Part shown: one piece after another, positions 4,659-37,890 of the stretch | Position numbering within the stretch: position 1 is the stretch's first letter | How the letters are laid out: each line of letters opens with the position of its first letter | NCBI GenBank assembly: GCA_016210585.1 | Contig: JACQTX010000044.1 | Coordinates: 1 to 47,546, forward strand | Origin: Chloroflexota bacterium | GTDB lineage: Bacteria; Chloroflexota; Dehalococcoidia; Dehalococcoidales; JAFGLR01 | Length of the DNA: 47,546 nt | Direction: 5' to 3' | Made by a program: the position numbers and the translations under genes | Notes under the pieces: model-generated | Databases searched by the model: none | What the model saw: the letters and a program-made list of their open reading frames with translations, nothing else | Told to the model about the DNA's origin: nothing

Positions 4659-4765
4659 CGGCGAACTGCTGTCTGACTCGCGGAAAGAGCCAATAGTATG
4701 ATATAGCCTGTTCTTGATGATACCCTCAGGGCAATGATGTCAGGCGTTTTGTTAGGGAGAGCGTA

Positions 4766-5284: not shown

Positions 5285-5320
5285 CGAGTGGTTATCTTAG
5301 GATGGGAATAGTCTAAACCT

Positions 5321-11746: not shown

Positions 11747-11777
11747 GATAGTCAAACTAAAGAAAAAGGAGGTGTGA

Positions 11778-11918
11778 ATGCAGGGCTATTGTATGAAGTG
11801 CCGGACCAAGAGGGAAATGAATAACGCCAAAGCCATCACCATGAAGAATGGCAAGCCGGCTACCCAGGGCGTTTGTCCTACTTGCGGCACCAAGATGTTC
11901 CGAATCGGCAAGAGCTAG
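11778..11918 (+). CDS. small Zn-ribbon protein (DUF5679-like), 46 aa
   Basis: Not in the ORF track because it is under 60 aa. Sequence MQGYCMKCRTKREMNNAKAITMKNGKPATQGVCPTCGTKMFRIGKS, with CxxC...CxxC. An AAGGAGG RBS lies 7 nt upstream, a promoter upstream and a strong terminator downstream. Confidence 0.65.
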   Translation: MQGYCMKCRTKREMNNAKAITMKNGKPATQGVCPTCGTKMFRIGKS

Positions 11919-11940
11919 GTAGCTGTTAGTAATATTAGAA

Positions 11941-11982
11941 AGGCAGGGCAGCCTTCACTGGAAGGCTGCCCTGCCTTTTTCT
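11941..11982 (+). terminator. rho-independent terminator
   Basis: Perfect 16-bp stem aggcagggcagccttc / gaaggctgccctgcct with loop ACTG, followed by TTTTCT. Confidence 0.85.
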
Positions 11983-12047
11983 GGCATCAAATCGCGCTTT
12001 TTTGCTAAAATGGAGGTAGTCCGCTCTATATTCTTGAGTGACTAGCG

Positions 12048-12635
12048 ATGAAAATCGGTGTTTTGGCATTACAGGGCGCTTTCATTGAGCATGTAGCTGT
12101 GCTGCGAAGGCTTAATATCGAGGCACGGGAGATCAGGCTGCCGGCGGAGCTGGCGGAAATGGACGGCCTGATTATTCCCGGCGGGGAAAGCACCACCATG
12201 CTGAACCTGATGCAGAGCTACAGCTTTGTCCCGGCCCTCCAGGAGCAGATCCGGAGTGGTTTCCCGGTGCTGGGCACCTGCGCCGGCATGATTTGCCTGG
12301 CCAAGAGGGTGTCTAGCTTGACCAATGATATGAAGACCCTGGCAGCCATGGACATGGAGGTCAGCCGCAATGCCTTTGGCCGCCAGGTGGACAGCTTTGA
12401 GGCGGAGCTGGCTGTGCCTGCCCTCGGCGAGCCGCCTTTCAAAGCGGTTTTCATTCGGGCGCCTCTCATCAAGGAGGTCGGGCCTGGGGTGGACGTTCTG
12501 ACCCGGCTGCCCGATGGCACACCGGTGGCTGCCCGCCAGGGCAACCTACTGGCAACTGCCTTCCACCCTGAGCTGACCGGTGACCTCAGGTTCCACGAAT
12601 ATTTCGTGAAAATAGTGGCCGCTCGTCAATCATAG
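12048..12635 (+). CDS. pdxT: pyridoxal 5'-phosphate synthase glutaminase subunit PdxT
   Basis: MKIGVLALQGAF.EH, LIIPGGESTTM, GTCAGMI and FHPELT blocks. 195 aa, the expected size. Confidence 0.9.
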   Translation: MKIGVLALQGAFIEHVAVLRRLNIEAREIRLPAELAEMDGLIIPGGESTTMLNLMQSYSFVPALQEQIRSGFPVLGTCAGMICLAKRVSSLTNDMKTLAAMDMEVSRNAFGRQVDSFEAELAVPALGEPPFKAVFIRAPLIKEVGPGVDVLTRLPDGTPVAARQGNLLATAFHPELTGDLRFHEYFVKIVAARQS

Positions 12636-12745
12636 CTGTATGTCTTTCTCCGCTCTGTCGAAAGAGATTGAGAGCAATACAGCGAAAATATGGGTGTGAT
12701 TGTCCTCCAATCGCCTTGAGTGTTTCTTCTTGCTGCTAGTTCCCT

Positions 12746-12774
12746 TTGACAGTCTCCGGGAATTGCTCTACCAT
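12746..12774 (+). promoter_or_regulatory. promoter candidate overlapping a near-NrpR-operator half-palindrome
   Basis: TTGACA (12746-12751), 17-nt spacer, TACCAT (12769-12774). GGAA-N6-TACC (12759-12772) is one mismatch from the methanogen NrpR operator consensus GGAA-N6-TTCC. Confidence 0.3.
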
Positions 12775-12818
12775 AAGGCAGGCGGCAAACGGTTTCCTAC
12801 TGCCACCCGGAAGACAGA

Positions 12819-13811
12819 ATGGCTTTTCAGACGCAGGATGTCCGGCGAAAGACCTTCGCCATTCTTAAGATTCTGAGCGATTCGCCGGAAGCTATAGGGG
12901 CACGGCTCATCGCCCGCCGCCTGAAGGAGCATGGCATAGCTCTCGGCGAGAGGGCAGTCCGTTACCACCTGAAGCTGCTTGACGCGCGTGGCCTGACCCA
13001 ATTAGTAGGAAAAGATGGTCGGCAGATTACCGAGCGCGGCGTAGAGGAACTGGGGAATGCTCTGGTCCGGGAGAAGGTTGGCCTCGCTATCTCCAGAATT
13101 GAGTTGCTGGCTTTTCGCACTACCTTTGACTGGGAGAAACGCTCCGGCAATGTCCCGGTAAACGTTGCCTTCTTTCCCAAGGAACGTTTCGGCAGGGCTG
13201 TGCGGGAAATGAGACCGGTCTTTGAAGCCGGTCTCTGCGTAAGTGACCTGGTGGGTGTTGTCCGTGAGGGTGAGCTTATCGGGGACTATATTGTGCCCCG
13301 CGGACGGATTGGCCTGGTAACTGTCTGTAGTGTGTTGATAAACGGGGTTTTGCTTAAGGCCGGTGTGCCGGTGGACTCGAAATTTGGCGGCATTCTGCAA
13401 ATAAGCGAGGGGAAACCGTTGCGTTTCGTGGAGCTTATCCACTATGCCGGGTCATCCCTGGACCCATCGGAGGTTTTTATCCGGTCACGGATGACCTCGG
13501 TGATGGATGTGGTGGAACAGGGGGAAGGCAATATCCTGGCTAATTACCGGGAGATACCGGCAGCCTGCCGGACGCTGGCGGAGGAGGTAATCGCCAGGCT
13601 GAAGATAGCCGGCATAGGCGGTGTGTTGGTGATGGGCAATACCAGCGAGCCGGTCTGTGAAATACCTGTGGAGCTTGACCGGATTGGCCTTGTGCTGGGT
13701 AGCGGTCTAAACCCGGTGGCCGCCGCCGGCGAAACCGGGCTGGAAGCGGAAAGCCATGCGATGACAGCGGTCATGGACTATGGGAAGCTAACAAAATTCG
13801 GGGAGCTATAG
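12819..13811 (+). CDS. NrpR-like transcriptional regulator (winged HTH + one DUF128/NrpR domain)
   Basis: 330 aa. The N-terminal wHTH (ILKILSDSPEAIGARLIARRLKEHGIALGERAVRYHLKLLD) is followed by an NrpR-type domain (ISRIELLAFRTTFD..., VCSVLINGVLLKAGVP). Confidence 0.65.
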   Translation: MAFQTQDVRRKTFAILKILSDSPEAIGARLIARRLKEHGIALGERAVRYHLKLLDARGLTQLVGKDGRQITERGVEELGNALVREKVGLAISRIELLAFRTTFDWEKRSGNVPVNVAFFPKERFGRAVREMRPVFEAGLCVSDLVGVVREGELIGDYIVPRGRIGLVTVCSVLINGVLLKAGVPVDSKFGGILQISEGKPLRFVELIHYAGSSLDPSEVFIRSRMTSVMDVVEQGEGNILANYREIPAACRTLAEEVIARLKIAGIGGVLVMGNTSEPVCEIPVELDRIGLVLGSGLNPVAAAGETGLEAESHAMTAVMDYGKLTKFGEL

Positions 13812-13813
13812 AG

Positions 13814-14584
13814 ATGAAAGAGGTAAAGGTCATACCCTGCCTGGACATAAGGGAGGGACGGGTAGTGAAAGGCGTGAAGTTCGTCAACCTGAGGGATGCC
13901 CGTGACCCGGTAGAGGCGGCGGAAGCCTACTGCCGCGCGGGTGCCGATGAGCTGGCCTTCCTGGACATCTTCGCCACGGTCGAGAATCGTAAGACGAGGT
14001 TGGAATGGGTCCGCCGAGTCGCGGAAGTCGTCAGTGTCCCCTTCACCGTGGGCGGTGGCATTGCCAGCATCCAGGACATGGACGCCCTGATAGACCTCGG
14101 CGTGGACAAGGTCTCCATAAACACTGCCGCCGTAAAGAACCCGGGTCTCATCCAAGAGGCCGCCCGAGAGTTCGGCAGCGAAAAGATTGTGGTGGCCATA
14201 GACGGACGTAAGAACCCCCTGTCCAGCAATGCCCCGCACCTTGAGGTGGTCATCAAGAGCGGCACGGAGCCGACGGGCATGCATATTTCGGAATGGGCCA
14301 AGCGGGTGGAAGACCTGGGTGCCGGCGAGATCCTGCTTACCAGCAAAGATGCTGACGGCACCAAAGAGGGCTATGACCTGGAGATGACGCGGGAGGCGGC
14401 GCGGGTCGTCAGCATACCGGTGACGGCTTCCGGTGGCGCCGGCAAGCTGGAGCATTTCTATGACGCGGTAATCATCGGGAAGGCATCGGCCGTCCTGGCG
14501 GCTTCTGTTTTTCACTTTGGCGAGATAGCCATACCGGATGTGAAGAGATACCTGAAAGAAAGAGGCATTCCAGTCAAAAGGTAG
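13814..14584 (+). CDS. hisF: imidazole glycerol phosphate synthase cyclase subunit HisF
   Basis: Near-consensus HisF blocks: VIPCLDI..GRVVKGVKF, GADELAFLDI, PFTVGGGI, GVDKVSINTAAV, GAGEILLTSKDADGTKEGYDL, VTASGGAG and AASVFHFGE. Confidence 0.92.
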   Translation: MKEVKVIPCLDIREGRVVKGVKFVNLRDARDPVEAAEAYCRAGADELAFLDIFATVENRKTRLEWVRRVAEVVSVPFTVGGGIASIQDMDALIDLGVDKVSINTAAVKNPGLIQEAAREFGSEKIVVAIDGRKNPLSSNAPHLEVVIKSGTEPTGMHISEWAKRVEDLGAGEILLTSKDADGTKEGYDLEMTREAARVVSIPVTASGGAGKLEHFYDAVIIGKASAVLAASVFHFGEIAIPDVKRYLKERGIPVKR

Positions 14585-14618
14585 GCTGCTGAAATAGTAA
14601 GAACAAAGGAGGTTTCTG

Positions 14619-16190
14619 ATGACATTAAGCAAGCCGAACTATAGTGCCGCCACGGTAACAACAACGCGGGTGGCGCCGGCACCCATCTCAGGGATATGCG
14701 TTACCTGTGTTGACGGCTGCCCGGGCTACTGCGAGGTGGGGCGGTCAGCACTGCGGGGGAGGGAGGTCATCTATCCCAAGCCCTTTGGCAAGGTGATAGC
14801 CGGCTCGGAGAAGGACTACCCGGTTGATTTCTCCCACTTCAATATCCAGGGCACCTGTGTTGGGGCCGTAGGCGTGGCTGCCGACCCGGACAAAGCAGTC
14901 TTTCATGCCGTTGACCTGTCCGTGGAAATCGGTGGTGAGAAAAACAAGATAAAGATGAAGGTGCCCTTCTTCACCGGGGCCCTCGGCTCGACGGAGATAG
15001 CCCGGGTGAACTGGGAGGGCACGGCGGTGGCCGTGGCCATGTGCGGCGCCGTGCTTGTCTGCGGCGAGAACGTCTGCGGCATGGACCCTGAAGCTACCAT
15101 CAAGAATGGCAAGATAGTGGACTCCCCGGAGCTCGCCCGGCGGGTGAAGACATACAAGGATTGGTATAACGGGTATGGCGCCATGCTGGTCCAGGCCAAT
15201 GTAGAGGATACCCGCCTCGGTGTGCCGGAGTATGCCGTGCAATCCCTGGGCGTGGAGGGCATCGAGATAAAGTGGGGGCAGGGCGCCAAGGACATCGGTG
15301 GTGAAGTTAAGCTGCCCACGCTGCAGCGGGCACTCCAGCTCAAACAGCGGGGCTATATTGTCATCCCGGACCCGGAGAACCCCTTTGTGCAGGAGTCCCA
15401 TAAGCTCGGCGGCATAACGGAGTTCGAGCGGCACTCCCGCCTGGGCATGGTGGACGAGGAGTCCTTCCTCAAGGAAGTCGAGCGGTTCCGGAAAATCGGC
15501 GCCAAGTATGTCACGCTCAAGACCGGTGCCTATAAAGCGTCTGACCTGGCCCGCGCCGTAAAGTATGCTTCGGAGGCCAAGATTGACCTGCTGACGGTTG
15601 ATGGTGCTGGCGGTGGCACAGGGATGAGCCCCTGGCGGATGATGAACGAGTGGGGTATTCCCACCGTATACCTGGAGAGTATGCTTTATAAATTCCTCAA
15701 GCGCCTGGACGAAAAGGGCGAATATGTGCCTAGCTGTGCTATTGCCGGTGGTGTCTCCCTCGAGGACCACGTCTTCAAGGCTTTAGCCCTGGGTGCACCA
15801 TACGTGAAGGCTATCTGTATGGGCCGGGCTACCCTGACGGCAGCTATGGTCGGCAAGACGCATGGCCAGCTCATGGCGGAGAGCTTCGGTGACGGGGGTA
15901 GCAAGGAATACCAGGAAGCCCTGCTGCGCACCTTCGCGGGCGCGGCCCAGCTGAAGGAGAAGTTCGGCGAGGACTTCACCCGGATTCCACCGGCAGCTAT
16001 CGGCATCTATACTTACTATGACAGGCTCGCCACCGGCCTGCGGCAGATGATGGCCGGCGAGCGCAAGTTCGCCCTGCAATATCTGGAAAGAAGCGACCTG
16101 ATGTCATTGACCCGTGAAGCGGCGGACGTCTCCGGTATCCCCTACGTCATGGAGGCGGACATGGCAGCCGCGGAGAAGATTCTGGGCTAG
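14619..16190 (+). CDS. FMN-dependent glutamate-synthase (GltB central domain)-like oxidoreductase with N-terminal Cys cluster
   Basis: 523 aa with a strong RBS (AAGGAGG). It has an N-terminal CVTCVDGCPGYC motif and Glu_synthase-type blocks (IEIKWGQGAKDIGGE, LLTVDGAGGGTGMSP, IAGGVS). Confidence 0.75.
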   Translation: MTLSKPNYSAATVTTTRVAPAPISGICVTCVDGCPGYCEVGRSALRGREVIYPKPFGKVIAGSEKDYPVDFSHFNIQGTCVGAVGVAADPDKAVFHAVDLSVEIGGEKNKIKMKVPFFTGALGSTEIARVNWEGTAVAVAMCGAVLVCGENVCGMDPEATIKNGKIVDSPELARRVKTYKDWYNGYGAMLVQANVEDTRLGVPEYAVQSLGVEGIEIKWGQGAKDIGGEVKLPTLQRALQLKQRGYIVIPDPENPFVQESHKLGGITEFERHSRLGMVDEESFLKEVERFRKIGAKYVTLKTGAYKASDLARAVKYASEAKIDLLTVDGAGGGTGMSPWRMMNEWGIPTVYLESMLYKFLKRLDEKGEYVPSCAIAGGVSLEDHVFKALALGAPYVKAICMGRATLTAAMVGKTHGQLMAESFGDGGSKEYQEALLRTFAGAAQLKEKFGEDFTRIPPAAIGIYTYYDRLATGLRQMMAGERKFALQYLERSDLMSLTREAADVSGIPYVMEADMAAAEKILG

Positions 16191-16201
16191 AGGAGATAGA
16201 G

Positions 16202-16411
16202 ATGCTGAAGACAGTTTGTATCAAACACTGCGCGGACCCCTTCTGCGCGGTAGCTTGCCCTTCCGGAGCACTGATAGTCACGGAAGACGAGATCAAGGTG
16301 GACTCTGACAAGTGCCACGGCTGCGGCATCTGCCGCCTGGTATGTATGACCTGGAGTCGTGACCATGTGATGCGGACAAAGAGCCGCTTCTGGCTGGCCG
16401 GGCGGCTGTAG
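16202..16411 (+). CDS. small 4Fe-4S ferredoxin-domain protein
   Basis: 69 aa with a GAGGAG RBS. It has CAVACPSGA and CHGCGICRLVC motifs. It starts 12 nt after the previous stop. Confidence 0.65.
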   Translation: MLKTVCIKHCADPFCAVACPSGALIVTEDEIKVDSDKCHGCGICRLVCMTWSRDHVMRTKSRFWLAGRL

Positions 16412-16441
16412 TCGAATATCTAGCAGGACGTTAAGCGCGCA

Positions 16442-16488
16442 GTGCGAAGCAGGGACGGGCTTCCGTCCCTGCTTCGCACTTGCTATTT
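16442..16488 (+). terminator. rho-independent terminator candidate
   Basis: Perfect 17-bp stem gtgcgaagcagggacgg / ccgtccctgcttcgcac (16442-16458 / 16463-16479) with loop GCTT, followed by TTGCTATTT. Confidence 0.7.
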
Positions 16489-16671
16489 CAACGGGGGTAG
16501 AGTAGCTCACAAAGCGTTTAGGGCAAACGTTTTGTGTAGGAGCCTGACTCGCGCGTGACTCCATGGTCACGATTGCTCCTTAATCCGTGGATTTGCATTC
16601 AAAATCACTTACTTTGCGAGTTCCAACGACAAACCACACCCAAATGCATAAGAACCATTGCTCGGCAGCTA

Positions 16672-16700
16672 TTGACATTGACTGTCGCTTGATGCATATT
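16672..16700 (+). promoter_or_regulatory. sigma70-type promoter candidate for the histidine kinase gene
   Basis: TTGACA (16672-16677), 17-nt spacer ending in TG, CATATT (16695-16700). The ATG lies at 16721. Confidence 0.35.
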
Positions 16701-16720
16701 AGGAGCATTGGAGAGCCTAA

Positions 16721-18073
16721 ATGAACCAAGTAAGAGAAAACCTATTCCTGCAGTTTTCCATCGTAAGCTTTGTAGCCCTGGTCATAATAGCGTTTGTTCT
16801 TAACGCTTCCATCGCTTCTGCTGTCCGCTCGCATGCCGAAGCCGCCCTAGCCAGCGAGGCAGTAGCTATGGCATCGAACCACCTCGTTGCCAGAATCACA
16901 CTGGCAGACCTTGAAACCCCGATGACTGGGGATCGGTATGACCGTTTTGACGCATTTGTGAAGACATCTATACTTAGCGGAAACACAGCCCGGGTAAAGG
17001 TGTGGGCCAAAGACGGAACGATAATCTATTCTGATAGCCGTGAAGCGGTAGGGAAGAAATTCCCTACAAACGAGCGGATGTTGCGGGCATTGAACGGCGA
17101 AACTATTGCTGAGATAGAAAAACCGGAGAGTGAAGAGACTGAAACGGAAGCGTCTCTCGGGGTCCTGATGTCCGTATATACTCCCATCGTTTTCGCAGAC
17201 ATCAGCGAGGCTAAGGGAGTCTTTGAGATTTACCAGTACTACGAGCCAACAGGACAGCTCATCGCCAAGCTGCACAGATGGGCTTCGTTATCAATCAGTG
17301 CTGGGTTCTTGCTGCTTTACGGTGCGCTGGTAGGCATTGTGTGGCGAGGCTGGCGGACTATTAAGCGGCAGCAAGCGGCACTGGTCACCTCAGACCGGCT
17401 GGCCTCCATCGGTGAGCTAGTCTCGGGCGTTGCTCATGAGATTAATAACCCGTTGACTAGCGTTATCGGGTTTTCCCAGCTATTGCTGGAAAAAGACGTC
17501 TCACCGGATATCAAGAGTGACCTGCAAGTGGTCCATGACGAGGCCCAGCGCACAGGGAGAATAGTGAAAAACCTGCTCAGCTTTGCCCGCCAGCAGGCAC
17601 CTATCAAACAGCTGACAAACGTAAACAGCGTTATCGAGAGAGTGCTCGCCTTGCGTGCCTATGAGCAGAAAGTAAACAACATCCAAGTCAATGCGCAGCT
17701 TGCCCCGGGTCTGCCGGAAATCATGGCCGACCCGTCACAGCTGCAACAGGTATTTTTCAACCTGGTTATCAACGCCGAGCACTTTATGCTAAAGGCACAT
17801 AAGCGTGGCACCCTGACCATATTGACGGAGAAGTCTGGCAGAACGGTGAGGGTTACCTTTACCGATGACGGTCCCGGTATTCCGAAGGAGCATATGAAGC
17901 GTCTGTTCACCCCCTTCTTTACGACAAAAGAGGTCGGCAAGGGCACCGGGCTGGGACTTAGCATTTGCTATGGCATAATAACCAGGCATGGTGGCCGAAT
18001 CTACGCTGAAAGTGAGCCGGGCAAAGGGGCTACCTTTATCGTGGAGCTGCCGATTACGCAGCAGCTTAAATAG
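16721..18073 (+). CDS. sensor histidine kinase (two TM helices, extracytoplasmic sensor, HisKA + HATPase_c)
   Basis: H-box SGVAHEINNPLT, plus N (NLVINAEHF), G1 (DDGPGI) and G2 (GKGTGLGLS) boxes. TM helices at about aa 8-30 and 187-208 flank a sensor domain of about 155 aa. No response regulator gene is adjacent. Confidence 0.85.
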   Translation: MNQVRENLFLQFSIVSFVALVIIAFVLNASIASAVRSHAEAALASEAVAMASNHLVARITLADLETPMTGDRYDRFDAFVKTSILSGNTARVKVWAKDGTIIYSDSREAVGKKFPTNERMLRALNGETIAEIEKPESEETETEASLGVLMSVYTPIVFADISEAKGVFEIYQYYEPTGQLIAKLHRWASLSISAGFLLLYGALVGIVWRGWRTIKRQQAALVTSDRLASIGELVSGVAHEINNPLTSVIGFSQLLLEKDVSPDIKSDLQVVHDEAQRTGRIVKNLLSFARQQAPIKQLTNVNSVIERVLALRAYEQKVNNIQVNAQLAPGLPEIMADPSQLQQVFFNLVINAEHFMLKAHKRGTLTILTEKSGRTVRVTFTDDGPGIPKEHMKRLFTPFFTTKEVGKGTGLGLSICYGIITRHGGRIYAESEPGKGATFIVELPITQQLK

Positions 18074-18277
18074 ATATCCGTGACTTTCTTCCTGAAAACA
18101 ACTTTTTCTTTCTCGCCTCGTATCGCCATGCGGTGGTAGATTCAGCCGGCATCCAGATACCAGACCGTCCTGGATTCCGGTTGGAGTTTACCCCGTTCAC
18201 GGTGGACTGTTCAAGGTGTTACCCGTGCTTCGACACGAGGCCGGAATGGACAGCGGTTGTATTTTCGGGGTGATAAC

Positions 18278-19393
18278 ATGCACTCCTCAGAACTCAATAT
18301 TGCCATCATCGGTGCCGGGGTCATTGGCCTGGCCGTAGCGGCGGAAATGGCACAGAAGCACAGGGGCGTCTATGTCTTCGAGAGAAACCGCACCTTCGGC
18401 CTGGAGACGAGCAGTCGGAACAGCGAGGTCATCCACGCCGGTATCTACAATCCCCCCGGCTCGCTGAAGGCAAAGCTCTGCGTCGAAGGCAGAGAGCTAC
18501 TCTATGAGCTTTGTGCGCGCCACGGCATCAGCCATCGTAAGCTAGGCAAAATCATTGTGGCCGTGGACGAAGATGAATTCGGGAAGCTGGAAAGGCTCTG
18601 CGAGCAGGGCAGAGAGAATGGTGTTGACGATTTGCGTTTTCTCTCCCGAAAAGAGCTAAGACAGCTTGAGCCGGAGGTAGAAGGTATCGGTGGCTTGCTC
18701 TCCCCTTCCACCGGCATCCTTGACGTCCATGCCCTGATGAGCTTCTTTCACAGCCAGGCAAAACGAAGTGGTGCTGAGTTCGTCTTCAACGCGGAGGTGA
18801 TTGGCCTGGAAAAGACCGGCACAAAATACCGCCTGGGCGTCAGGGATAGAGAGGGTATCCAGTCTGTTCTTGCCAGAATAGTCATAAACTGTGCTAGCCT
18901 GAACTCAGACCAGATAGCCCAACTCGCTGGCATTGACACCTCGGAAGCAGGCTACAGGCTTCACTACTGCAAAGGGGAATATTTCAGCCTCAGCCCGCCG
19001 CAGCGCGATCTGGTCAGCCGGCTTGTTTATCCGGTCCCGGAGGAATCAGGGCTGGGCATTCACATCACCCGTGATATCGAAGGGAAGCTGCGGCTCGGCC
19101 CCAATGCCTATTACATAGATAACATAGACTATAAGGTGGACGATACTCATAAAGAAGCCTTCTACCAGGCGGTCAAGAGATTTCTGCCCGCTATTGAACG
19201 GGAATGGCTGGCCCCCGATTTCGCCGGTATCCGGTCCAAGCTCCAGGGACCGGGCGACGGTTTCCGTGACTTCGTCATCGCTCATGAGGACAAGCGCGGT
19301 CTGCCCGGCCTTATCAACCTCATCGGTATTGAGTCTCCCGGCCTCACCGCCTCGCCGGCTGTTGCGAGATACGTGGCGGGAATGATAGAATAA
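18278..19393 (+). CDS. FAD-dependent oxidoreductase, L-2-hydroxyglutarate oxidase/dehydrogenase (LhgO)-like
   Basis: I prefer ATG 18278 over the track's TTG at 18257. It has an N-terminal Rossmann IAIIGAGVIGLAVAAE, plus SSRNSEVIHAGIY and a C-terminal GIESPGLTASPAVA block typical of this DAO-type subfamily. Confidence 0.7.
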   Translation: MHSSELNIAIIGAGVIGLAVAAEMAQKHRGVYVFERNRTFGLETSSRNSEVIHAGIYNPPGSLKAKLCVEGRELLYELCARHGISHRKLGKIIVAVDEDEFGKLERLCEQGRENGVDDLRFLSRKELRQLEPEVEGIGGLLSPSTGILDVHALMSFFHSQAKRSGAEFVFNAEVIGLEKTGTKYRLGVRDREGIQSVLARIVINCASLNSDQIAQLAGIDTSEAGYRLHYCKGEYFSLSPPQRDLVSRLVYPVPEESGLGIHITRDIEGKLRLGPNAYYIDNIDYKVDDTHKEAFYQAVKRFLPAIEREWLAPDFAGIRSKLQGPGDGFRDFVIAHEDKRGLPGLINLIGIESPGLTASPAVARYVAGMIE

Positions 19394-19395
19394 GC

Positions 19396-19872
19396 ATGTT
19401 ATCGGGGTTTGTTGTGGCTGACGAGCTAGCGAAAATCTTAGCATCATACCGGGGCAACAGAAGCGAGCTACTGTCCATTCTGCGAGAAGTGCAGGACACC
19501 TTCAACTATCTACCGGAAGAAGCCATGCGGCAGGTGGCCAAGTTCATTGGCATTCCGGAAAGCCAACTCTACTCTGTGGCCTCTTTCTACTCTCATTTCC
19601 GCCTGACGCCACTGGGTCGGAAGCGGATTTCCGTCTGCCGCGGCACGGCCTGTCACATTCGCGGTGCCCCGCAGGTCATAGAGGAGGCCGGGCGTCTCCT
19701 TGGCGTCAAGGAATCGGAGACAACACCTGACCTGGAATATACCCTGGAGACTGTGGCCTGTATCGGCTGCTGTGCACTGGCACCCTGCCTGCGTGTGAAT
19801 GAGGAAGTCCACGGCGAGGTGACGCTGAAGAAGGTGCGGGAGCTACTGCCCGACTTGAACAATGGAGCATAG
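19396..19872 (+). CDS. NuoE/HydC-like [2Fe-2S] thioredoxin-fold subunit
   Basis: CRGTACHIRG ... CIGCCALAPC Cys pattern. 158 aa. It starts 2 nt after the upstream stop. Confidence 0.85.
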   Translation: MLSGFVVADELAKILASYRGNRSELLSILREVQDTFNYLPEEAMRQVAKFIGIPESQLYSVASFYSHFRLTPLGRKRISVCRGTACHIRGAPQVIEEAGRLLGVKESETTPDLEYTLETVACIGCCALAPCLRVNEEVHGEVTLKKVRELLPDLNNGA

Positions 19873-21499
19873 CATGGCGGACGGGCAGTGCACAGTGACA
19901 GTTTGCCAGGGGACTGGCTGTATCTCCAATGGCGCCGACCGGCTCTACGCCGCGTTGCAGGCCGAAGTGGTTCGACTCAACCTCGGTGACAGTATTCACG
20001 TCAAGCAGACTGGTTGCCAGGGCTTCTGCCAGCGCGGACCGCTCGTTATCACCAGGCCTGATGGCACCTTCCATTGCAGGGTCACACCGGAAGACGTCCC
20101 CGATTTTGTCCAATCGCTTTTGCCTGGCGGCAAGCCTGCCGAGCGCCTCTACTATCGCGACATGGTGACGGCGCGGGCGACAGCCCACTGGGCGGATATT
20201 CCCTTCTACTACCAGCAGGAGCGCCGTGTCCTGCGCAACTGCGGGCATATTGACCCGGAGAATATCGAGGAATACATAGCCGCTGGCGGCTACCGGGCAC
20301 TGCACCGTGCCCTGTTTGAGATGGCGCCGGAGGAGGTTATCGCCGAGGTCAAACGCTCCGGGCTGCGCGGGCTGGGCGGCGCCGGTTTCCCGGCAGGGCG
20401 CAAGTGGGAGAGCTGCCGGAAAGCCCCAGGCGAGCCGAAGTTCGTCATCTGCAATGCCGACGAGGGCGACCCCGGTGCTTTTCAGGACCGCTCGCTTTTG
20501 GAGGGCGACCCCCACTCCGTTCTGGAAGGCATGACCATCGCCGCCTACGCGGTAGGTGCTCACAAAGGCTTCGTCTATGTTCGCGCCGAGTACCCACTGG
20601 CTGTGAGGCGCCTTGGGGTTGCCGTGACGCAGATGCGGGAAAAGGGCTATCTGGGCAAAGGCATCCTGGGCAGCGGCTTTGATTTCGATATCGAAATCTT
20701 CCAGGGCGCCGGGGCTTTCGTCTGTGGCGAGTCAACAGCCCTGGTGCTCTCCATCGAAGGCAAACGTGGTATGCCTAAGGCACTGCCCCGGCCGCGCACG
20801 TCCGAGGTCGGCCTGTGGGGTAAGCCTACCCTGCTCAACAACGTGAAGACCTTTGGCAACGTCCCGCTCATTATCGCCCACGGCGCCGATTGGTTTGCTC
20901 GCCTGGGCAATGCGCAGAGCAAGGGCACGGCTATCTTCTCCCTTACGGGCAAAATTGTCAATAGCGGCCTCATCGAGGTGCCTATGGGCACCCGGCTACG
21001 TGAGGTTATCTATGACATCGGCGGGGGGATTCCTGACGGGCGGGCTTTCAAGGCGGTACAAACGGGCGGGCCTTCCGGTGGCTGCCTGCCAGCCTCCATG
21101 CTCAACATGCCCGTGGACTTTGATTCCCTCAAGGCTGCCGGCTCCATGATGGGGTCGGGCGGCATGGTAATCATGGATGAGGACACGTGCATGGTTGATG
21201 TGGCCCGCTATTTCCTCGATTTCTCGCGCCGCGAGTCCTGCGGGCAGTGCACCCCTTGCCGTGTGGGCACGCAGCAGATGTTTGCCATTCTGGATGATAT
21301 TACGCAGAGGAAAGGCAAGCCGGGTGACATCGAAGTGCTTTTGGAGCTGGGCGAGGCAATGGCGCAGACCTCCATCTGTGCCCTGGGCCAGACGGCGCCC
21401 AATCCCGTGCTGACCACTATCCGCCACTTCCGCTCCGAGTATGAAGCCCATATTTACGAGAAGCGATGTCCGGCCGGCGCCTGCCGGGCATACCTGTAG
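19862..21499 (+). CDS. NuoF/HydB-like NAD(H)-binding FMN/[4Fe-4S] subunit with N-terminal [2Fe-2S] domain
   Basis: GLRGLGGAGFPAGRKW, CNADEGDPGAF, GAGAFVCGESTAL, ESCGQCTPCRVG and ICALGQTAPNPV blocks. It overlaps the nuoE-like gene by 11 nt. Confidence 0.9.
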   Translation: MEHSMADGQCTVTVCQGTGCISNGADRLYAALQAEVVRLNLGDSIHVKQTGCQGFCQRGPLVITRPDGTFHCRVTPEDVPDFVQSLLPGGKPAERLYYRDMVTARATAHWADIPFYYQQERRVLRNCGHIDPENIEEYIAAGGYRALHRALFEMAPEEVIAEVKRSGLRGLGGAGFPAGRKWESCRKAPGEPKFVICNADEGDPGAFQDRSLLEGDPHSVLEGMTIAAYAVGAHKGFVYVRAEYPLAVRRLGVAVTQMREKGYLGKGILGSGFDFDIEIFQGAGAFVCGESTALVLSIEGKRGMPKALPRPRTSEVGLWGKPTLLNNVKTFGNVPLIIAHGADWFARLGNAQSKGTAIFSLTGKIVNSGLIEVPMGTRLREVIYDIGGGIPDGRAFKAVQTGGPSGGCLPASMLNMPVDFDSLKAAGSMMGSGGMVIMDEDTCMVDVARYFLDFSRRESCGQCTPCRVGTQQMFAILDDITQRKGKPGDIEVLLELGEAMAQTSICALGQTAPNPVLTTIRHFRSEYEAHIYEKRCPAGACRAYL

Positions 21500-21506
21500 G
21501 GTTTGT

Positions 21507-21585
21507 AGCTATCAGCAGTCAGCCTTCGGTTTGTGTATTGTAAATAATCAATAAGCTGATAGCTGAAAGCTGATTGCTGATAGCT
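21507..21585. repeat. palindromic intercistronic repeat (agctatcagc family)
   Basis: The arms agctatcagcagtcagc (21507-21523) and gctgattgctgatagct (21569-21585) are 16/17 complementary. It shares 13-nt agctgattgctga and 10-nt gctgaaagct with 42829-42897. Confidence 0.6.
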
Positions 21586-21600
21586 TCGTGTTGGGGTCTG

Positions 21601-24156
21601 ATGGAAACAGTTACACTGACAATTGACGGTCGAAACGTGGTTGCCGAGCGGGGCATCACTGTCCTTGAGGCAGCGCTTGAGAATGGCATCTACATCCCGC
21701 ACCTGTGCTACCACCCGGACTTCGAGTCACATAGTGCCTGTCGGCTGTGCCTGGTTGACACCGGCGATGGCGAGCTTTTGCCCTCCTGCCGACTGACGGT
21801 AGCACCAGGTATGGTTGTTACGACCAATAGCCAGATGATTGAGCGGGCGCGCCGCTCCATACTGGAGATGATGGTCGCCGACCACCATACCACCTGCCGG
21901 GGTTGCCCCAGCAGCGGGCAGTGTGAGCTACAACGGATTATGGGACGGCTGCGCATAGACCGCAAACGTCTCGAAAGGCTGAGATGGCCCACTGAGGATT
22001 TACCACGCGACACGTCCAATCCCTTCTTCGACTTTGACCCCAACAGATGCGTGCTCTGCGGCATTTGCGTCAAGACCTGCGAGGAGATCCAGGGGGCTGA
22101 TGCCATCTATTACACCGCCCGGGGTAATATGACCCGGATCGCCCCCTTCGGCAACAAGCCGTTCGCCCAGTCCCGCTGCGAGTCCTGTGGCGAGTGTGTA
22201 GTCCGGTGCCCCGTCGGGGCTCTGGTGACGAAGAACGTCCAGCGTCCCAAGCAAGAGGTAAAGTCGGTCTGCCCTTACTGCGGGGTTGGCTGCGGTATCT
22301 ATCTGGGTATCCGCGAGGGCGTCATCGTTGATGTGCGCGGTGATACGGCAAGCCCCGTCAATGGCGGCCACCTCTGCGTGAGAGGTCGCTACGGCTGGCG
22401 CTTTGTCCATTCGCCGGAGCGTCTCACGACGCCGCTTGTCAAGAAGAGCGGTGAGCTTGTTCCGGCGTCCTGGGACGAAGCTTTGAGTCTGGTGGCGGAA
22501 AGACTGGCTGGCTACCGCGGCGACCGGTTTGCTATGGTTACCTCAATCAAGCTCACCAACGAAGAGGCTTATCTGGCGCAGAAGTTCGCCCGGACAGTTA
22601 TGGACAGCAACAACATAGATAGCGATGCCCGCCTGTCTGACGCGCCCACACTGGCAGCCTTGCAGAGGACGGTGGGCATGGGTGCCACCAGCCCGCTCAG
22701 TGAGCTGGCGCAGGCAGCTACCATTCTGGCTATTGGGACAAATGCTACCGAGACGCATCCAGTGGTTGGAGCGCGGCTAAGGCAGGCGGCGCGCCGGGGT
22801 GCCTCCCTCATTGTGGCCAATCCACGCGAAATTGACCTCTGCCGCCACGCCAGGATGTGGCTGAGGCCGCACCTGGGCACGGACGTAGCTCTTATCATGG
22901 GGATATGCCGTGTCATTCTGGAAGAAGGGCTGGTGGACGCCAGTCTTGTTGATGAGAAGGCTGCCGGTCTTACGGCCTGGCGTGAGTCACTGCGTGACTT
23001 CAGCCTGGGACGGGTGGAGCGGATTACGGGTGTTCCCCAGGAGGAAATAGCAGAAGCTGCCCGTCTCCTGGCCAGCGGGCCGACGGCTATCGTCTATGGT
23101 GCTGGGATTACCCAACATACCCATGGAACGGACAACGTCCTGGCGCTCATCAATCTGGCGCTGCTTCTCAATACTGGCAACGATAGTCTGAGGCTTTACC
23201 CGCTCCAGGCGCATAACAATGCTTTGGGTGTCTGTGACATGGGCTGCCTGCCGGACTACTTGCCCGGTTATGCGGCCGTGGCTGACGCATCGGTCCGTGA
23301 GCGGCTCGCAGCCGTCTGGAAAGCTGATTTGCCGGCTAGTCCTGGCCGGACCCTGACAGAGATGTGGTCGGCACTGGCGTCGGGGACGGTGAAGGCATTA
23401 TACCTTGTGGGTGCTGACCCCTTGTCAACTATGCCCGGCCATGAGGCAGTACGGCAAGCCCTTGCGTCCGCGGCGTTCGTAGTTGTCCAGGACATGTTCC
23501 TCACCGAGACGGCCAGGCACGCCGATGTCGTTCTACCGGCCGCCAGCTTCGCGGAGCAGGAGGGAACTTTCACCAATATGGAGCGGCGCCTGCAGCGCGT
23601 CCGTAGAGCTATATCACCGGTGGGTGACTCTCGCCCGGGCTGGCAGATTATCACCGAGCTGGCCGGCAGGATGGGTAGCAAAGGTTTCGCTTTCGGCAGT
23701 GCGGCAGAAATAATGGCAGAGGTCGCTGCACTGGTCCCGCCATACGAAAAAGCGAGCCCGGAGGAAAGCACACTATGTAGCTTCCCCGCGGCTGACAGAC
23801 GCTTCGCGCCACTGGCATATGAGCCAGTGGAGAAGATTGCCGATATTGACTACCCATTGCTCCTGGTCACAGAAAGCTGCTTATACCATCATGGTAACTG
23901 GTCAGCCAGAGTGGCCGGACTCAAGGTGCTGGCGGACGAGCCATTTCTACAGGTAAATCCAAAGGATGCCGCGGACTACGGTGTCACGAATGGCCAGATG
24001 GTGCAGGTCGCGTCAAAGCAGGGGGAAATGGTCACAAAAGCTATTGTTTCGGATGTCACGCCGCCCGGCGTGGTGACTCTGAAGGGCGGCGCCCAAGACC
24101 TTCAGGCGTTGCAGGCTGGGCTGACGGCGGTCCGTATAGTCCCCCAAACAGAATGA
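21601..24156 (+). CDS. formate-dehydrogenase-alpha-like molybdopterin-family subunit with substituted active site (Ser/Asp/Gln)
   Basis: I prefer ATG 21601 (METVTLTIDGR...). The N-terminal 2Fe-2S and 4Fe-4S motifs and CPYCGVGC are conserved. The active-site block reads DSDARLSDAPT instead of HCARL(U/C)HAPT, and YPLQAHNNALG instead of NPLRGQNNVQG. Confidence 0.85.
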   Translation: METVTLTIDGRNVVAERGITVLEAALENGIYIPHLCYHPDFESHSACRLCLVDTGDGELLPSCRLTVAPGMVVTTNSQMIERARRSILEMMVADHHTTCRGCPSSGQCELQRIMGRLRIDRKRLERLRWPTEDLPRDTSNPFFDFDPNRCVLCGICVKTCEEIQGADAIYYTARGNMTRIAPFGNKPFAQSRCESCGECVVRCPVGALVTKNVQRPKQEVKSVCPYCGVGCGIYLGIREGVIVDVRGDTASPVNGGHLCVRGRYGWRFVHSPERLTTPLVKKSGELVPASWDEALSLVAERLAGYRGDRFAMVTSIKLTNEEAYLAQKFARTVMDSNNIDSDARLSDAPTLAALQRTVGMGATSPLSELAQAATILAIGTNATETHPVVGARLRQAARRGASLIVANPREIDLCRHARMWLRPHLGTDVALIMGICRVILEEGLVDASLVDEKAAGLTAWRESLRDFSLGRVERITGVPQEEIAEAARLLASGPTAIVYGAGITQHTHGTDNVLALINLALLLNTGNDSLRLYPLQAHNNALGVCDMGCLPDYLPGYAAVADASVRERLAAVWKADLPASPGRTLTEMWSALASGTVKALYLVGADPLSTMPGHEAVRQALASAAFVVVQDMFLTETARHADVVLPAASFAEQEGTFTNMERRLQRVRRAISPVGDSRPGWQIITELAGRMGSKGFAFGSAAEIMAEVAALVPPYEKASPEESTLCSFPAADRRFAPLAYEPVEKIADIDYPLLLVTESCLYHHGNWSARVAGLKVLADEPFLQVNPKDAADYGVTNGQMVQVASKQGEMVTKAIVSDVTPPGVVTLKGGAQDLQALQAGLTAVRIVPQTE

Positions 24157-26380: not shown

Positions 26381-26429
26381 ATCTATGCGTAAAGGCGGCC
26401 AAGTCGAGACTCTTTTCAGGGGGTGTGCT

Positions 26430-27800
26430 ATGGCAAAAATGGAAGACTGGGAGAGTGATGACTCAATAGAACAGGACAATACACCTGTTGACGTTCCGAT
26501 AGAATATAGAAACATTAACGCTAGGGATGACAAAATAAGCTTAGAGGAACTTTGGGAACGTTACAAGAAAGGCAATCTGGTTTTGGAGCCTGACTTCCAG
26601 CGCCATTACGTATGGGACGACAACAGAGCGAGTCGCTATGTAGAATCTTTGCTTCTAGGGCTACCTACTCCGCCAATTTTTATAGCTGAAGAAACCGGCG
26701 GTGAGTGGACAGTTATAGACGGACATCAAAGATTGGGGACTATCTTCCGTTTTATGAAGCCGTTATTAAAAGGCCCATCAGAAGTGGCACACGTAAATAT
26801 CCCTTTCGCCAGTCTCTCACCCCTAATTTTGAAGAATCTCGAAGTTATGTCCGCTGAGTTGAACGGGCATGATATCCAAGGGTTATCGCCAGATGGTAGA
26901 GAGCGGTTATGGAAAACTCAGCTCTCAATAGTTTTGCTTCCCAAAACGGCTCATTCAAAAATGAAATATGTCATGTTTGCGAGATTGAATCTTGGTTCAA
27001 TGAGCTTGAATAATCAGGAACTTAGAAACTGTCTATACCGAGGCAAGTATAATGATTTTATAGCTAAATTGAGCGAAGCACAGCAATTTCTCAAATTGTG
27101 GGGAAAGAACTTTCCGGACAAAAGAATGAGACATAGAGAGTTAGTATTACGTTTCTTCGCATTTCTACACATGAGGGAAAACTACGAACCCCCTTATAGG
27201 ACGTTCCTCAATAGAGAGCTGGAGGAGAATCAAACCATAACGCAAGAAAGACTCTCTCATTACCATTCGCAATTTGACGCTGCAATCAAGTGGGTCGATA
27301 ATATTCTTGTCAAAGAAGCTTTCAGACAGTTTCGTATCGGGGACGAGATAAATCATTCAGGTCGTTGGGTAGCAAAGCGTTATGAACTTGTCTACGAATT
27401 TCAAGCGGTTGGTTTTGCTCAATTCGGTAGCTTACTTGATAATATTTGGGGTAGCATTACCCCCACTGAACAAGACCTGCTACGATTGGTTATCAGGAAT
27501 CGGCTAGTTTCTATTATGGCAACAGACCACTTTGTGGCTAGTATAAAGGAAGGCACTACGAAACCAAGCTCCATAGAGTCTAGGTTTGAACCATGGATTC
27601 AAGTTCTTGAACAAACTACGGGAGATGTCAAGAGGACGCTCGAGTTTGGCAGAACGTTGCATACGGCAATAACTCAAAGCAATATATGTGCTTGGTGTCC
27701 AGTTCAAGTATTACCTGAAGAAGCCGTCCTGGTAACTCTGAACAATAACTACAAGGTAGCACACCGATATTGCCAAAAAGTGCACCAGTCGTTCAAATAA
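26430..27800 (+). CDS. DUF262 (ParB-like nuclease/NTPase, GmrSD N-terminal type) domain protein
   Basis: I prefer ATG 26430 after AGGGGG. It has DFQRHYVW, IDGHQRLGTI and FARLNLGSMSLNNQELRNC blocks. The roughly 200-aa C-terminal part is unrecognised and ends CAWCP...HRYC. GC is about 35-42% in hand-counted samples, against about 60% in neighbouring genes. Confidence 0.8.
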   Translation: MAKMEDWESDDSIEQDNTPVDVPIEYRNINARDDKISLEELWERYKKGNLVLEPDFQRHYVWDDNRASRYVESLLLGLPTPPIFIAEETGGEWTVIDGHQRLGTIFRFMKPLLKGPSEVAHVNIPFASLSPLILKNLEVMSAELNGHDIQGLSPDGRERLWKTQLSIVLLPKTAHSKMKYVMFARLNLGSMSLNNQELRNCLYRGKYNDFIAKLSEAQQFLKLWGKNFPDKRMRHRELVLRFFAFLHMRENYEPPYRTFLNRELEENQTITQERLSHYHSQFDAAIKWVDNILVKEAFRQFRIGDEINHSGRWVAKRYELVYEFQAVGFAQFGSLLDNIWGSITPTEQDLLRLVIRNRLVSIMATDHFVASIKEGTTKPSSIESRFEPWIQVLEQTTGDVKRTLEFGRTLHTAITQSNICAWCPVQVLPEEAVLVTLNNNYKVAHRYCQKVHQSFK

Positions 27801-35848: not shown

Positions 35849-35856
35849 AAATAAAC

Positions 35857-35892
35857 CCGTCTTTAGCCCGCCTGCAGGCGGGCTAAAGACGG
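35857..35892 (+). other. perfect 16-bp intercistronic stem-loop (dctP2/dctQ2)
   Basis: ccgtctttagcccgcc / ggcgggctaaagacgg with loop TGCA. No T-tract follows. Confidence 0.7.
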
Positions 35893-35917
35893 AGCGGTAA
35901 GGACAAACAGGTAGGCC

Positions 35918-36397: not shown

Positions 36398-36403
36398 CCG
36401 AGT

Positions 36404-37870: not shown

Positions 37871-37890
37871 ATAGAGAGTCAGGAGGGAAA

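Follow-up and report, generated by a model that had tools for sequence, protein, structure and literature searches.

Background

What does an NADH-binding NuoE-NuoF (NuoEF) module work on when its neighbors are a flavin dehydrogenase on one side and a degenerate relative of the formate dehydrogenase (FDH) alpha subunit on the other? This question is raised by contig JACQTX010000044.1 of a Chloroflexota bacterium from the Dehalococcoidia (assembly GCA_016210585.1), which we analyzed over its full 47,546 nucleotides (nt), hereafter the window. Between positions 18278 and 24156 four plus-strand genes encode a DAO-family flavin adenine dinucleotide (FAD) dehydrogenase, a NuoE-like and a NuoF-like subunit, and an FdhA-like protein with iron-sulfur (Fe-S) and molybdenum (Mo) cofactor domains. 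An earlier note on this DNA had read them as an operon for an NAD-linked redox complex, in which the usual catalytic partner of NuoEF is disabled and the flavin dehydrogenase takes its place. The note did not recognize this architecture as a characterized system; we too found no published description of the cluster in the literature searched, although the coverage of that search was incomplete and novelty is not proven.

Comparison of gene order in 178 related loci (the window counted among them; individual loci are cited by L numbers) suggests a different answer. The four genes are best explained as the distal half of a nitrogen-assimilation cluster that spans 12819-24156, and the likely catalytic partner of the module, a GltB-like protein with a ferredoxin (14619-16411), falls outside the coordinates that the earlier note considered. 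We propose, with a probability of roughly 0.6, that the cluster encodes an NADH-fed, HydB/BfuB-like electron module serving a glutamate-synthase-like enzyme next to the nitrogen regulator NrpR, and that the DAO-family gene is an accessory to it.

Results and discussion

Gene order around the GltB-like gene

The hub of the cluster is the gene at 14619-16190 (plus strand), whose product, a putative flavin mononucleotide (FMN) protein, bears the source name 'FMN-binding glutamate synthase family'. Next comes a gene at 16202-16411 for a small 2x[4Fe-4S] ferredoxin of 69 amino acids (aa), too short for an 80-aa filter on open reading frame (ORF) length and recognized from its ORF and its homologs in L009 and L010 by tblastn mapping. 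A unit consisting of the GltB-like protein, a ferredoxin, NuoE, NuoF and a NuoG/BfuA-like Fe-S subunit recurs across phyla. The order GltB-like, Fer4, NuoE, NuoF and then an FdhA-like or truncated NuoG-like gene, with all genes adjoining and in the same direction, is found in Actinomycetota (L009), in Nitrospirota of the Thermodesulfovibrionales (L010, L011, L015 and L017), in Ammonifex (L018), in a Thermoproteota-labeled bin (L019) and in Dehalococcoidia (L013, L014, L101, L117, L172 and L178). The L019 contig, JARXPE010000038.1, carries a GltB-like gene with 83% identity, followed by Fer4, NuoE, NuoF and a gene like the N-terminal part of NuoG; its assignment to Thermoproteota is due to horizontal transfer or to misbinning.

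The window's GltB-like protein is 77-87% identical to the products of genes directly preceding Fer4-NuoE-NuoF in several phyla, and the nearest relative found (87% identity) stands in the order GltB-like, Fer4, NuoE, NuoF. Its affinity to the Actinomycetota and Nitrospirota copies (79-80%) exceeds that to a Dehalococcoidia subtype accompanied by the DAO-family gene alone (53-56%). Wherever the GltB-like protein is at least 77% identical to that of the window, a ferredoxin gene comes next. A profile scan of one genome per GTDB species recovered at least 585 GltB-like loci, the best 80 of which were analyzed; among the genome loci with more than 75% identity to the window gene in which 4.5 kb or more can be read downstream, a ferredoxin follows in 7/7 and NuoEF in 6/7. 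The conserved partner of NuoEF thus appears to be the GltB-like protein together with the ferredoxin. The same arrangement emerges from the other end of the cluster: two of three neighborhoods retrieved with FdhA-like homologs, one in an actinomycetotal metagenome-assembled genome (MAG) with glnA nearby and one in a nitrospirotal MAG, show NrpR, a GltB-like protein of 521 aa, a 74-aa ferredoxin, NuoE, NuoF and the FdhA-like protein, while the third contig begins at nuoE.

The first gene of the cluster (12819-13811, plus strand) encodes an NrpR-type nitrogen regulator, with a winged helix and NRD1/2 region (Pfam NRD1_2, 270 bits; HTH_12). NrpR flanks the GltB-like gene in L001-L005, L009-L015, L017, L101, L104, L111, L117 and L172-L177, and other nitrogen genes found near the cluster in relatives include glnA, purL/purQ, nadE and asnB. 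Between nrpR and the GltB-like gene of the window lies a gene for a HisF-like (beta/alpha)8 protein (13814-14584, plus strand; Pfam His_biosynth, 267 bits), which begins 2 nt past the nrpR stop. We left it out of the core unit because its position is conserved only in Dehalococcoidia, where the order NrpR-HisF-GltB-like is seen in L001-L005, L012, L013, L021, L094, L101 and L172-L177. A search of the window for the methanogen-type NrpR operator GGAA-N6-TTCC returned three matches, no more than expected by chance, and none of them in a relevant promoter; the bacterial operator may differ.

Two side observations concern these regulatory genes. Archaeal-type NrpR is widespread beside nitrogen genes in bacteria, namely in Dehalococcoidia, Nitrospirota and Actinomycetota. 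The Dehalococcoidia HisF-like gene is translationally coupled to NrpR, and pdxT, purL/purQ, nadE and glnA are often near; in the window, the contig annotation places pdxT at 12048-12635 on the plus strand.

The DAO-family flavoenzyme

The DAO-family gene (18278-19393, plus strand) starts with an ATG at 18278, which the N-termini of homologs favor over a TTG at 18257, and ends with a TAA at 19393. Its product belongs to the superfamily by its Pfam DAO match (PF01266, 228.5 bits against a gathering cutoff of 27.9) and by the FAD motif IIGAGVIGLA at residues 10-19, and it falls in the branch of LhgO, L2HGDH and type-2 GlpO. The earlier note had labeled it 'LhgO-type'. LhgO (NF008726) is indeed the best-scoring named NCBIfam model, but the score of 260.8 bits lies under the equivalog cutoff of 299, and the match is confined to residues 7-278, which correspond to positions 2-269 of the 389-position profile. 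The type-2 GlpO model (NF033460) aligns over its full length, though with 199.2 bits against a cutoff of 460. Escherichia coli LhgO, Drosophila L2HGDH (8w75) and Mycoplasma type-2 GlpO (4x9m) share the DAO fold with the window protein and align well over the FAD-binding N-terminal half; LhgO exceeds the window protein in length by about 50 aa. The best solved relative of the window protein (3dme) is itself an uncharacterized protein. The enzyme is most likely a 2-hydroxyacid dehydrogenase, and our best guess is that it would convert L-2-hydroxyglutarate to 2-oxoglutarate; linkage to enzymes that use 2-oxoglutarate fits a reaction that produces it.

This protein represents a very large family of about 374 aa, with members 62-68% identical found mainly in Dehalococcoidia/Chloroflexi. 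In the first long contigs examined, its gene stands after NrpR-HisF-GltB-like or directly after NrpR, and NuoEF is not near. A metagenome scan anchored on the window's DAO-family protein gave 80 loci, and wherever 3 kb or more was available upstream, the locus was grouped by identity to this protein. At 59% identity or more (8 loci), the GltB-like gene is present in 7, a glutamate dehydrogenase gene instead in 1, and NuoEF in 3. At 45-58% (16 loci) the corresponding counts are 2, 0 and 1, and at 45% or less (17 loci) all three are 0. Loci that combine the DAO-family gene with NrpR, HisF or the GltB-like gene and have no NuoEF comprise L001-L007, L012, L094, L096, L097, L106, L107 and L175. The DAO-family gene thus stays beside either kind of glutamate-forming enzyme, with or without NuoEF, which suggests a role at the 2-oxoglutarate/glutamate node. 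To judge from these neighborhoods, its product most likely acts as an accessory to the nitrogen cluster rather than as a dedicated NuoEF subunit.

These observations bear directly on the proposal that the DAO-family protein, NuoE, NuoF and the FdhA-like protein are subunits of a single soluble complex. In such a complex a 2-hydroxyacid would be oxidized at the FAD of the DAO-family protein and its electrons would pass through the Fe-S clusters of the FdhA-like protein to the FMN of NuoF, where NAD+ would be reduced; reduced ferredoxin might help to drive the reaction, as in lactate dehydrogenase/Etf. The gap of only 2 nt to nuoE and the lack of a detectable terminator favor it, as do a NuoF that matches bifurcating HydB/BfuB chains far better than FdsB or Nqo1 and retains the B2 cluster ligands with their signature His (see below), and a ferredoxin of the subtype that co-occurs with DAO-family genes in relatives. 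Moreover, the two parts do share clusters in Dehalococcoidia. In L101 and L172 the order is GltB-like, Fer4, NuoE, NuoF, truncated NuoG-like and then, on the same strand after about 110 nt, the DAO-family gene; L111 has NrpR, NuoE, NuoF, NuoG-like, GltB-like and DAO, and L104 has NrpR-HisF, NuoE, NuoF, NuoG-like, GltB-like, ATP-binding cassette (ABC) transporter genes and DAO. Nevertheless, conservation of the junction itself, which the earlier note had offered as a check, fails, since immediate DAO-nuoE adjacency is seen in 1/178 loci, the window alone. The position of the DAO-family gene also varies: it may lie before the module or after it, may have the GltB-like gene and ABC transporter genes in between, or may, as in L117, be convergent with the GltB-like/NuoEF module. 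Of the 8 loci at 59% identity or more, just 3 have NuoEF and 1 has a glutamate dehydrogenase instead, and we found neither an Fe-S motif nor an extra docking-type domain in the protein.

Finally, the NuoEF-FdhA-like clusters of Nitrospirota, Actinomycetota and Ammonifex do without a DAO-family gene and stand directly after the GltB-like and ferredoxin genes, which speaks against a flavin dehydrogenase having replaced the usual catalytic partner of NuoEF. A dedicated link between the two is likewise not supported, NuoEF being absent from most loci in which the DAO-family gene is found. We therefore hold the four-protein complex to be unlikely. What survives of the association is the sharing of clusters in Dehalococcoidia (L101, L172, L104 and L111), which favors a functional link rather than a demonstrated physical one. 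Loci with only the GltB-like and DAO-family genes, with or without a ferredoxin, have no other electron donor gene near, so the DAO-family enzyme might feed electrons too; that it supplies electrons as well as substrate to the hub, or couples directly to NuoEF, is possible but unproven.

The NuoE and NuoF subunits

The nuoE-like gene (19396-19872, plus strand) encodes a [2Fe-2S] subunit of the NuoE/HydC/BfuC type, which matches Pfam 2Fe-2S_thioredx (PF01257) with 161.9 bits and passes the equivalog cutoff for NuoE (NF005722, 146.8 bits against 141). The following nuoF-like gene (19862-21499, plus strand) encodes an FMN- and NADH-binding subunit of the NuoF/HydB/BfuB type, in which the Complex1_51K, SLBB and NADH_4Fe-4S domains are preceded by an N-terminal thioredoxin-like 2Fe-2S domain. 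Among solved chains it scores best against 7t2r_B (739 bits), the NuoF-type subunit of the Acetomicrobium mobile NiFe-HydABCSL enzyme, followed by 7q4v_B and 8a6t_B, with FdsB at 349-388 bits and Thermus Nqo1 at 371.

To examine this likeness we used the cluster criteria B1-B5 given for BfuB by Schut et al. 2022 (PMC9304861). The B5 and B1 clusters are represented by PF01257 at residues 7-85, with Cys 15, 20, 52 and 56, and by NADH_4Fe-4S at residues 446-530. All five B2 ligand positions are occupied as in A. mobile, with C443, T481, H530, C536 and C541 of the window protein corresponding to C438, C476, H525, C531 and C536. The B2 His is missing from non-bifurcating homologs, and Thr replaces the second B2 Cys in two thirds of BfuB sequences (PMC9304861). 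In contrast, the window NuoF stops at residue 545 while 7t2r_B runs to 597, and the C-terminal 2x[4Fe-4S] domain with clusters B3 and B4 is lacking. NuoF orthologs in the same clusters are likewise short (543-551 aa); long forms occur in L104 (647 aa, with a C-terminal ferredoxin domain) and L111 (622 aa).

By its predicted architecture, then, NuoF is HydB/BfuB-like, which bears out the earlier note's assignment of NuoEF to the type found in bifurcating enzymes. With HydABC/BfuABC the window shares the trio of NuoE/BfuC-, NuoF/BfuB- and NuoG-N/BfuA-like subunits, alignment of NuoF residues 9-543 with 7t2r_B including B5, B1 and the five B2 positions, and the modular logic by which a catalytic partner is provided by extra genes. 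There are also differences. The B3/B4 domain, which forms the ferredoxin path of BfuB, is absent, and the cluster has the separate 69-aa dicluster ferredoxin, whose equivalence to B3/B4 is unproven: its PDB matches are generic dicluster ferredoxins and include no HydB chains, and BLASTP against the long L104 NuoF shows only generic ferredoxin-motif similarity. At least one conserved FMN-site residue, M204 (PMC9304861), is Gln in the window NuoF. The candidate catalytic partner, a GltB-like FMN enzyme, has no counterpart among the third reactions described in PMC9304861. Since the defining B3/B4 domain was tested for and is lacking, we refrain from counting the module among the Bfu enzymes, although it works like one in architecture.

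An origin in respiratory complex I must also be weighed. On this account NuoE, NuoF and the FdhA-like protein are the detached NuoEFG input module of an 11-subunit complex I encoded elsewhere, and the DAO-family and GltB-like genes are unrelated neighbors. NuoG is itself a degenerate relative of Mo enzymes, NuoE passes its equivalog cutoff, and there is precedent in Chloroflexi, in which an 11-subunit nuo operon together with a separate nuoEFG operon has been reported (PMC5736913). However, NuoF matches HydB/BfuB with 739 bits against 371 for Nqo1 and has the extra N-terminal 2Fe-2S domain, while the FdhA-like protein scores 547 bits against FdsA and 223 against bacterial NuoG. Both fall under the cutoffs of the complex I models, NuoF with 476.7 bits against 558.65 (TIGR01959) and the FdhA-like protein with 335.4 against 470.05 (NuoG, TIGR01973). 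Together with the ties of the module to the GltB-like protein, ferredoxin and NrpR across phyla, and with other nuo genes not being found on the 47.5-kb contig, this makes such an origin highly improbable.

The FdhA-like subunit

The FdhA-like gene (21601-24156, plus strand), whose start is backed by N-terminal alignment with homologs, encodes two parts. An N-terminal Fe-S part (residues 1-215; 21601-22245) contains Fer2_4, NADH-G_4Fe-4S_3 and Fer4_Nqo3, that is, NuoG-type Fe-S domains, and is followed by a degenerate part of the type that binds a molybdenum/tungsten bis-pyranopterin guanine dinucleotide cofactor (22246-24156), with the Pfam domains Molybdop_Fe4S4, Molybdopterin and Molydop_binding. 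The protein has no near relative, the closest homolog being 57% identical. The earlier note's view of a catalytically altered Mo subunit is upheld at three sites. At the Mo ligand the window reads ARL-S-D-AP where homologs have ARL-C-H-AP, so that the pair of selenocysteine (Sec) or Cys and His is replaced by Ser-Asp; the catalytic Arg is replaced by Gln (PLQAHNNALG against PLRGQNNVQG); and about 12 residues are gone from the conserved C-terminal motif. The score against the Fdh-alpha model (TIGR01591) is 603.6 bits, under the cutoff of 666.25.

The two parts differ in how well they are preserved. At positions at least 93% conserved among the other members of a 17-sequence FdhA-like alignment, the window deviates at 31/199 in the Mo part, compared with 2-18 in the 16 homologs, and is the strongest outlier of the 17; in the Fe-S part it deviates at just 6/89, on a par with the homologs. 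In five Dehalococcoidia loci (L013, L014, L101, L117 and L172) the gene after nuoF encodes the Fer2_4/NuoG-type Fe-S domains and no Mo domain at all. These truncated genes specify about 210-220 aa in L101, L117 and L172 and 154 aa in L014, with a 276-aa ORF in L013, and their products are 56-62% identical to window residues 1-214 (58-62% for L013, L101 and L172) and end exactly where the Mo part of the window protein begins. Even the full-length FdhA-like genes linked to GltB-like genes lack the catalytic Arg (Leu, Trp, Phe or Gln instead) in all cases with readable motifs, and their Cys-His pair (C-H, C-Q, C-D or S-D) is mostly lost. Mo-less relatives, the substitutions and the missing Arg together indicate that the Mo domain is dispensable and decaying. 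Hence the FdhA-like protein most likely serves as a NuoG/BfuA-type Fe-S electron wire, with a Mo domain that would be a decaying remnant without formate chemistry.

The best solved relatives of the protein (520-547 bits) are the alpha subunits of FdsGBA from Rhodobacter capsulatus (6tg9) and Cupriavidus necator (6vw7), which share both its domain order and the gene order gamma(NuoE)-beta(NuoF)-alpha. Unlike FdsA, the window protein has Ser for the Cys/Sec ligand, Asp for His and Gln for Arg, in addition to the C-terminal deletion and the score under the TIGR01591 cutoff, and its relatives drop the Mo domain entirely; further, the beta subunit of the window is HydB-like and not FdsB-like. An assimilatory nitrate reductase was also considered, with NasC as the second-best NCBIfam match and with the nitrogen context in mind, and was rejected on account of the scores (Fdh-alpha 603 against 352 bits) and of the deletion of the Mo domain in relatives.

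A second locus of this kind lies on the minus strand of the contig (27893-34139) and comprises a paralogous NuoE, a NuoF::GltD fusion of 1023 aa and an FdhA. This FdhA consists of two ORF halves joined by an in-frame TGA at 29542-29540 and reads CARL-U-HAP, with an intact PLRGQNNVQG motif. As judged from these motifs, it is a canonical selenocysteine FDH, whose NuoF is fused to a GltD-like NAD(P)H/FAD domain. An intact Sec-FDH on the contig implies that the organism would have no need of the Ser-type paralog for formate chemistry.

This locus also lends some color to an account in which chance rearrangement brought the four genes together, the DAO-family enzyme acts alone, and the NuoEF-FdhA-like block is a decaying paralog of the Sec-FDH. 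A histidine kinase gene inserted in the window only, a palindromic element in the spacer before the FdhA-like gene (both described below) and the degeneration of the Mo domain would accord with this. Yet none of the four ORFs is disrupted, and conservation of the Fe-S part of the FdhA-like protein matches that seen in its homologs. The N-terminus of this protein is 58-64% identical to the GltB-linked orthologs, as against 45% for the Sec-FDH of the same contig, and the neighborhood of the module is conserved across phyla. Chance juxtaposition is decidedly improbable in view of this.

The glutamate synthase-like hub and a proposed mechanism

The label of the hub rests on its partial Pfam match, the names given by the sources, the NrpR, glnA and glutamine-dependent neighbors, and a displacement in one relative. 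The GltB-like protein matches Glu_synthase (PF01645) with 59.7 bits, above the gathering cutoff of 20.4, though over only positions 185-302 of the 369-position profile. An N-terminal CX2CX3CX3C motif has its four Cys invariant in 30 sequences. The best single argument that the hub makes glutamate from 2-oxoglutarate comes from the metagenome locus L100. Between its NrpR-HisF and DAO genes, where other loci have the GltB-like gene, stands one for a Glu/Leu/Phe/Val-type dehydrogenase (418 aa; 2086-3342), in what looks like a non-orthologous displacement.

Under the reading that we favor, NADH would be oxidized at the FMN of the HydB/BfuB-like NuoF, and electrons would pass through the Fe-S clusters of NuoE and NuoF, the N-terminal Fe-S domain of the FdhA-like protein and the small ferredoxin to the [4Fe-4S]/FMN GltB-like protein, where 2-oxoglutarate and nitrogen from ammonia or glutamine would be converted to glutamate. 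NrpR, as a sensor of 2-oxoglutarate, would control the whole cluster. The DAO-family enzyme would supply 2-oxoglutarate to the glutamate-forming step, and possibly electrons too, its gene having been placed between those for ferredoxin and NuoE by a rearrangement in this contig.

Several findings weigh against this reading. The glutamate-synthase label is weak: no NCBIfam model matches the GltB-like protein, and searches of solved structures, with the single sequence as well as with a 30-sequence profile, reach no glutamate synthase, only de novo TIM barrels. Its AlphaFold2 model is poor, with a mean predicted local distance difference test (pLDDT) score of 49.9 (22 homologs, all at least 82% identical), and a Foldseek search with this poor model returned generic FMN TIM barrels at template modeling (TM) scores of 0.28 or less, with the glutamate synthase (GOGAT) 6s6s at rank 25, and is uninformative. 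There is no amidotransferase or GXGXG gene among the annotated ORFs of the window, the ORFs at 42924-44327 and 44645-46942 being left unannotated. Furthermore, the window ferredoxin belongs to a subtype that does not precede NuoE in relatives. Ferredoxins about 45% identical to it are always followed by nuoE; those 80-84% identical occur in loci without NuoEF, with the DAO-family gene next in 4/7 (L012, L092, L094 and L175, as opposed to L173, L176 and L177). By its ferredoxin, the window looks like a GltB-like-Fer4-DAO cluster that gained the kinase and the NuoE-NuoF-FdhA-like block, so this block may be a later addition here and its partner could differ. Lastly, the 2-nt gap between the DAO-family gene and nuoE and the recurrence of the former near the module in Dehalococcoidia would be compatible with direct contact between the proteins.

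In a bolder variant the cluster would encode a NuoEF/Bfu-type enzyme with reductive glutamate synthesis, carried out by the GltB-like FMN protein, as its third reaction, a split-off ferredoxin standing in for B3/B4 and, in Dehalococcoidia, the DAO-family enzyme plugged into the Fe-S network. Electrons from a 2-hydroxyacid such as L-2-hydroxyglutarate, alone or together with those of NADH, would then aminate the resulting 2-oxoglutarate, so that, under the control of NrpR, a hydroxyacid would be turned into an amino acid without net redox change. Such a scheme would account for those loci in which the GltB-like and DAO-family genes, whether or not a ferredoxin gene is present, have no other donor gene beside them. 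We regard it as rather unlikely.

With glutamate synthases (GltBD, the archaeal split GltB and the YerD type) the hub shares a PF01645 match above the cutoff, the name given by the sources, a length of about 520 aa as in stand-alone GltB domain-2 proteins, a nitrogen-assimilation context (NrpR, glnA) and a single displacement by glutamate dehydrogenase. Unlike GltBD, the window has no GltD partner and a NuoEF-type module in its place; the hub ORF has no amidotransferase or GXGXG domain, its similarity is partial, with a profile too weak to reach solved GOGATs, and its Fe-S motif is the N-terminal CX2CX3CX3C rather than the internal CX5CX4C of GltB. Judged by these comparisons, the cluster resembles BfuABC/HydABC, FdsGBA, stand-alone GltB domain-2 proteins and LhgO/L2HGDH and is a member of none, as at least one tested defining feature is lacking for each catalytic family that it resembles.

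In L173, a close relative, convergent minus-strand genes at 11768-14033 for GltD/NfnB-like and DHODB_Fe-S_bind (PyrK/NfnA-like) proteins come after the GltB-like and ferredoxin genes, NuoEF and DAO being absent, and may represent a third alternative input module.

Gene junctions, the spacer palindrome and flanking genes

At the sequence level, the description of the four genes in the earlier note was accurate throughout: the nuoE-like ATG at 19396 lies 2 nt past the DAO stop, nuoE and nuoF overlap by 11 nt, and a 101-nt spacer with a palindrome precedes the FdhA-like gene. Its statement that no terminator interrupts 18278-24156 also stands, a consensus pattern scan of the plus strand having found no terminator-like site there, with the nearest downstream at 24384 and 24426. 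Four intact ORFs in the same direction, tightly spaced and without a detected terminator make an operon of the DAO-family, nuoE, nuoF and FdhA-like genes plausible from sequence, although the spacer holds a strong hairpin, without a U tract, that resembles repetitive extragenic palindromic (REP) elements. Its inverted repeat (21507-21585) has 21-nt arms at 21507-21527 and 21565-21585 that are 90% complementary, with a folding energy of -41.7 kcal/mol (z = -5.4). The motif, with the core AGCTATCAGCA(N)TCAGC, occurs again in an unrelated intergenic region (42829-42897), and it has 8 matches in the window against 0.16 expected by chance. Both facts point to a dispersed REP-like element that is not specific to the operon. 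Rfam and tRNA scans of the window gave no matches, and no known riboswitch was detected by the Rfam scan in the 204-nt region upstream of the DAO-family gene.

Between the ferredoxin and DAO-family genes lies a histidine kinase gene (16721-18073, plus strand; Pfam HisKA, HATPase_c) without an adjoining response regulator. An insertion of this sort downstream of the ferredoxin gene, ahead of the next member of the cluster, is found in none of the relatives examined and is peculiar to the window; the kinase is probably outside the system. A gene for a GmrSD-type restriction endonuclease (26385-27800) has a low G+C fraction of 0.455 against about 0.58 in its flanks and is probably a small acquired defense island that separates the two NuoEF/FdhA loci. 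Two similar sets of tripartite ATP-independent periplasmic (TRAP) transporter genes (DctP, DctQ, DctM) lie toward the two ends of the contig, at 2190-6640 and 34595-39057, each with a gene that matches the arginine deiminase (ADI) family weakly and partially.

Conclusions

A DAO-NuoEF complex would, if real, constitute a hydroxyacid-linked bifurcating system, for which the comparative evidence is weak. Of greater interest is the larger cluster next to NrpR, in which a GltB-like protein and a ferredoxin are joined by NuoEF and a pseudo-FDH subunit. If our reading of it is correct, many strict anaerobes, among them Dehalococcoidia, Nitrospirota/Thermodesulfovibrionales and some Actinomycetota and Bacillota, would make glutamate with an input module borrowed from hydrogenases and formate dehydrogenases instead of the classical GltD. 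Nitrogen assimilation would thereby join the known jobs of NuoEF/Bfu-type modules, among which 18 of 57 Bfu clades were left unassigned (Schut et al. 2022, PMC9304861). The cluster would also offer a view of a molybdoenzyme subunit turning into a pure electron wire, with full-length, degenerate and truncated forms in orthologous clusters, in parallel to the origin of NuoG. For the annotation of metagenomes it would follow that labels such as 'formate dehydrogenase alpha' and 'NADH-quinone oxidoreductase E/F' on genes of this kind do not imply formate metabolism or complex I.

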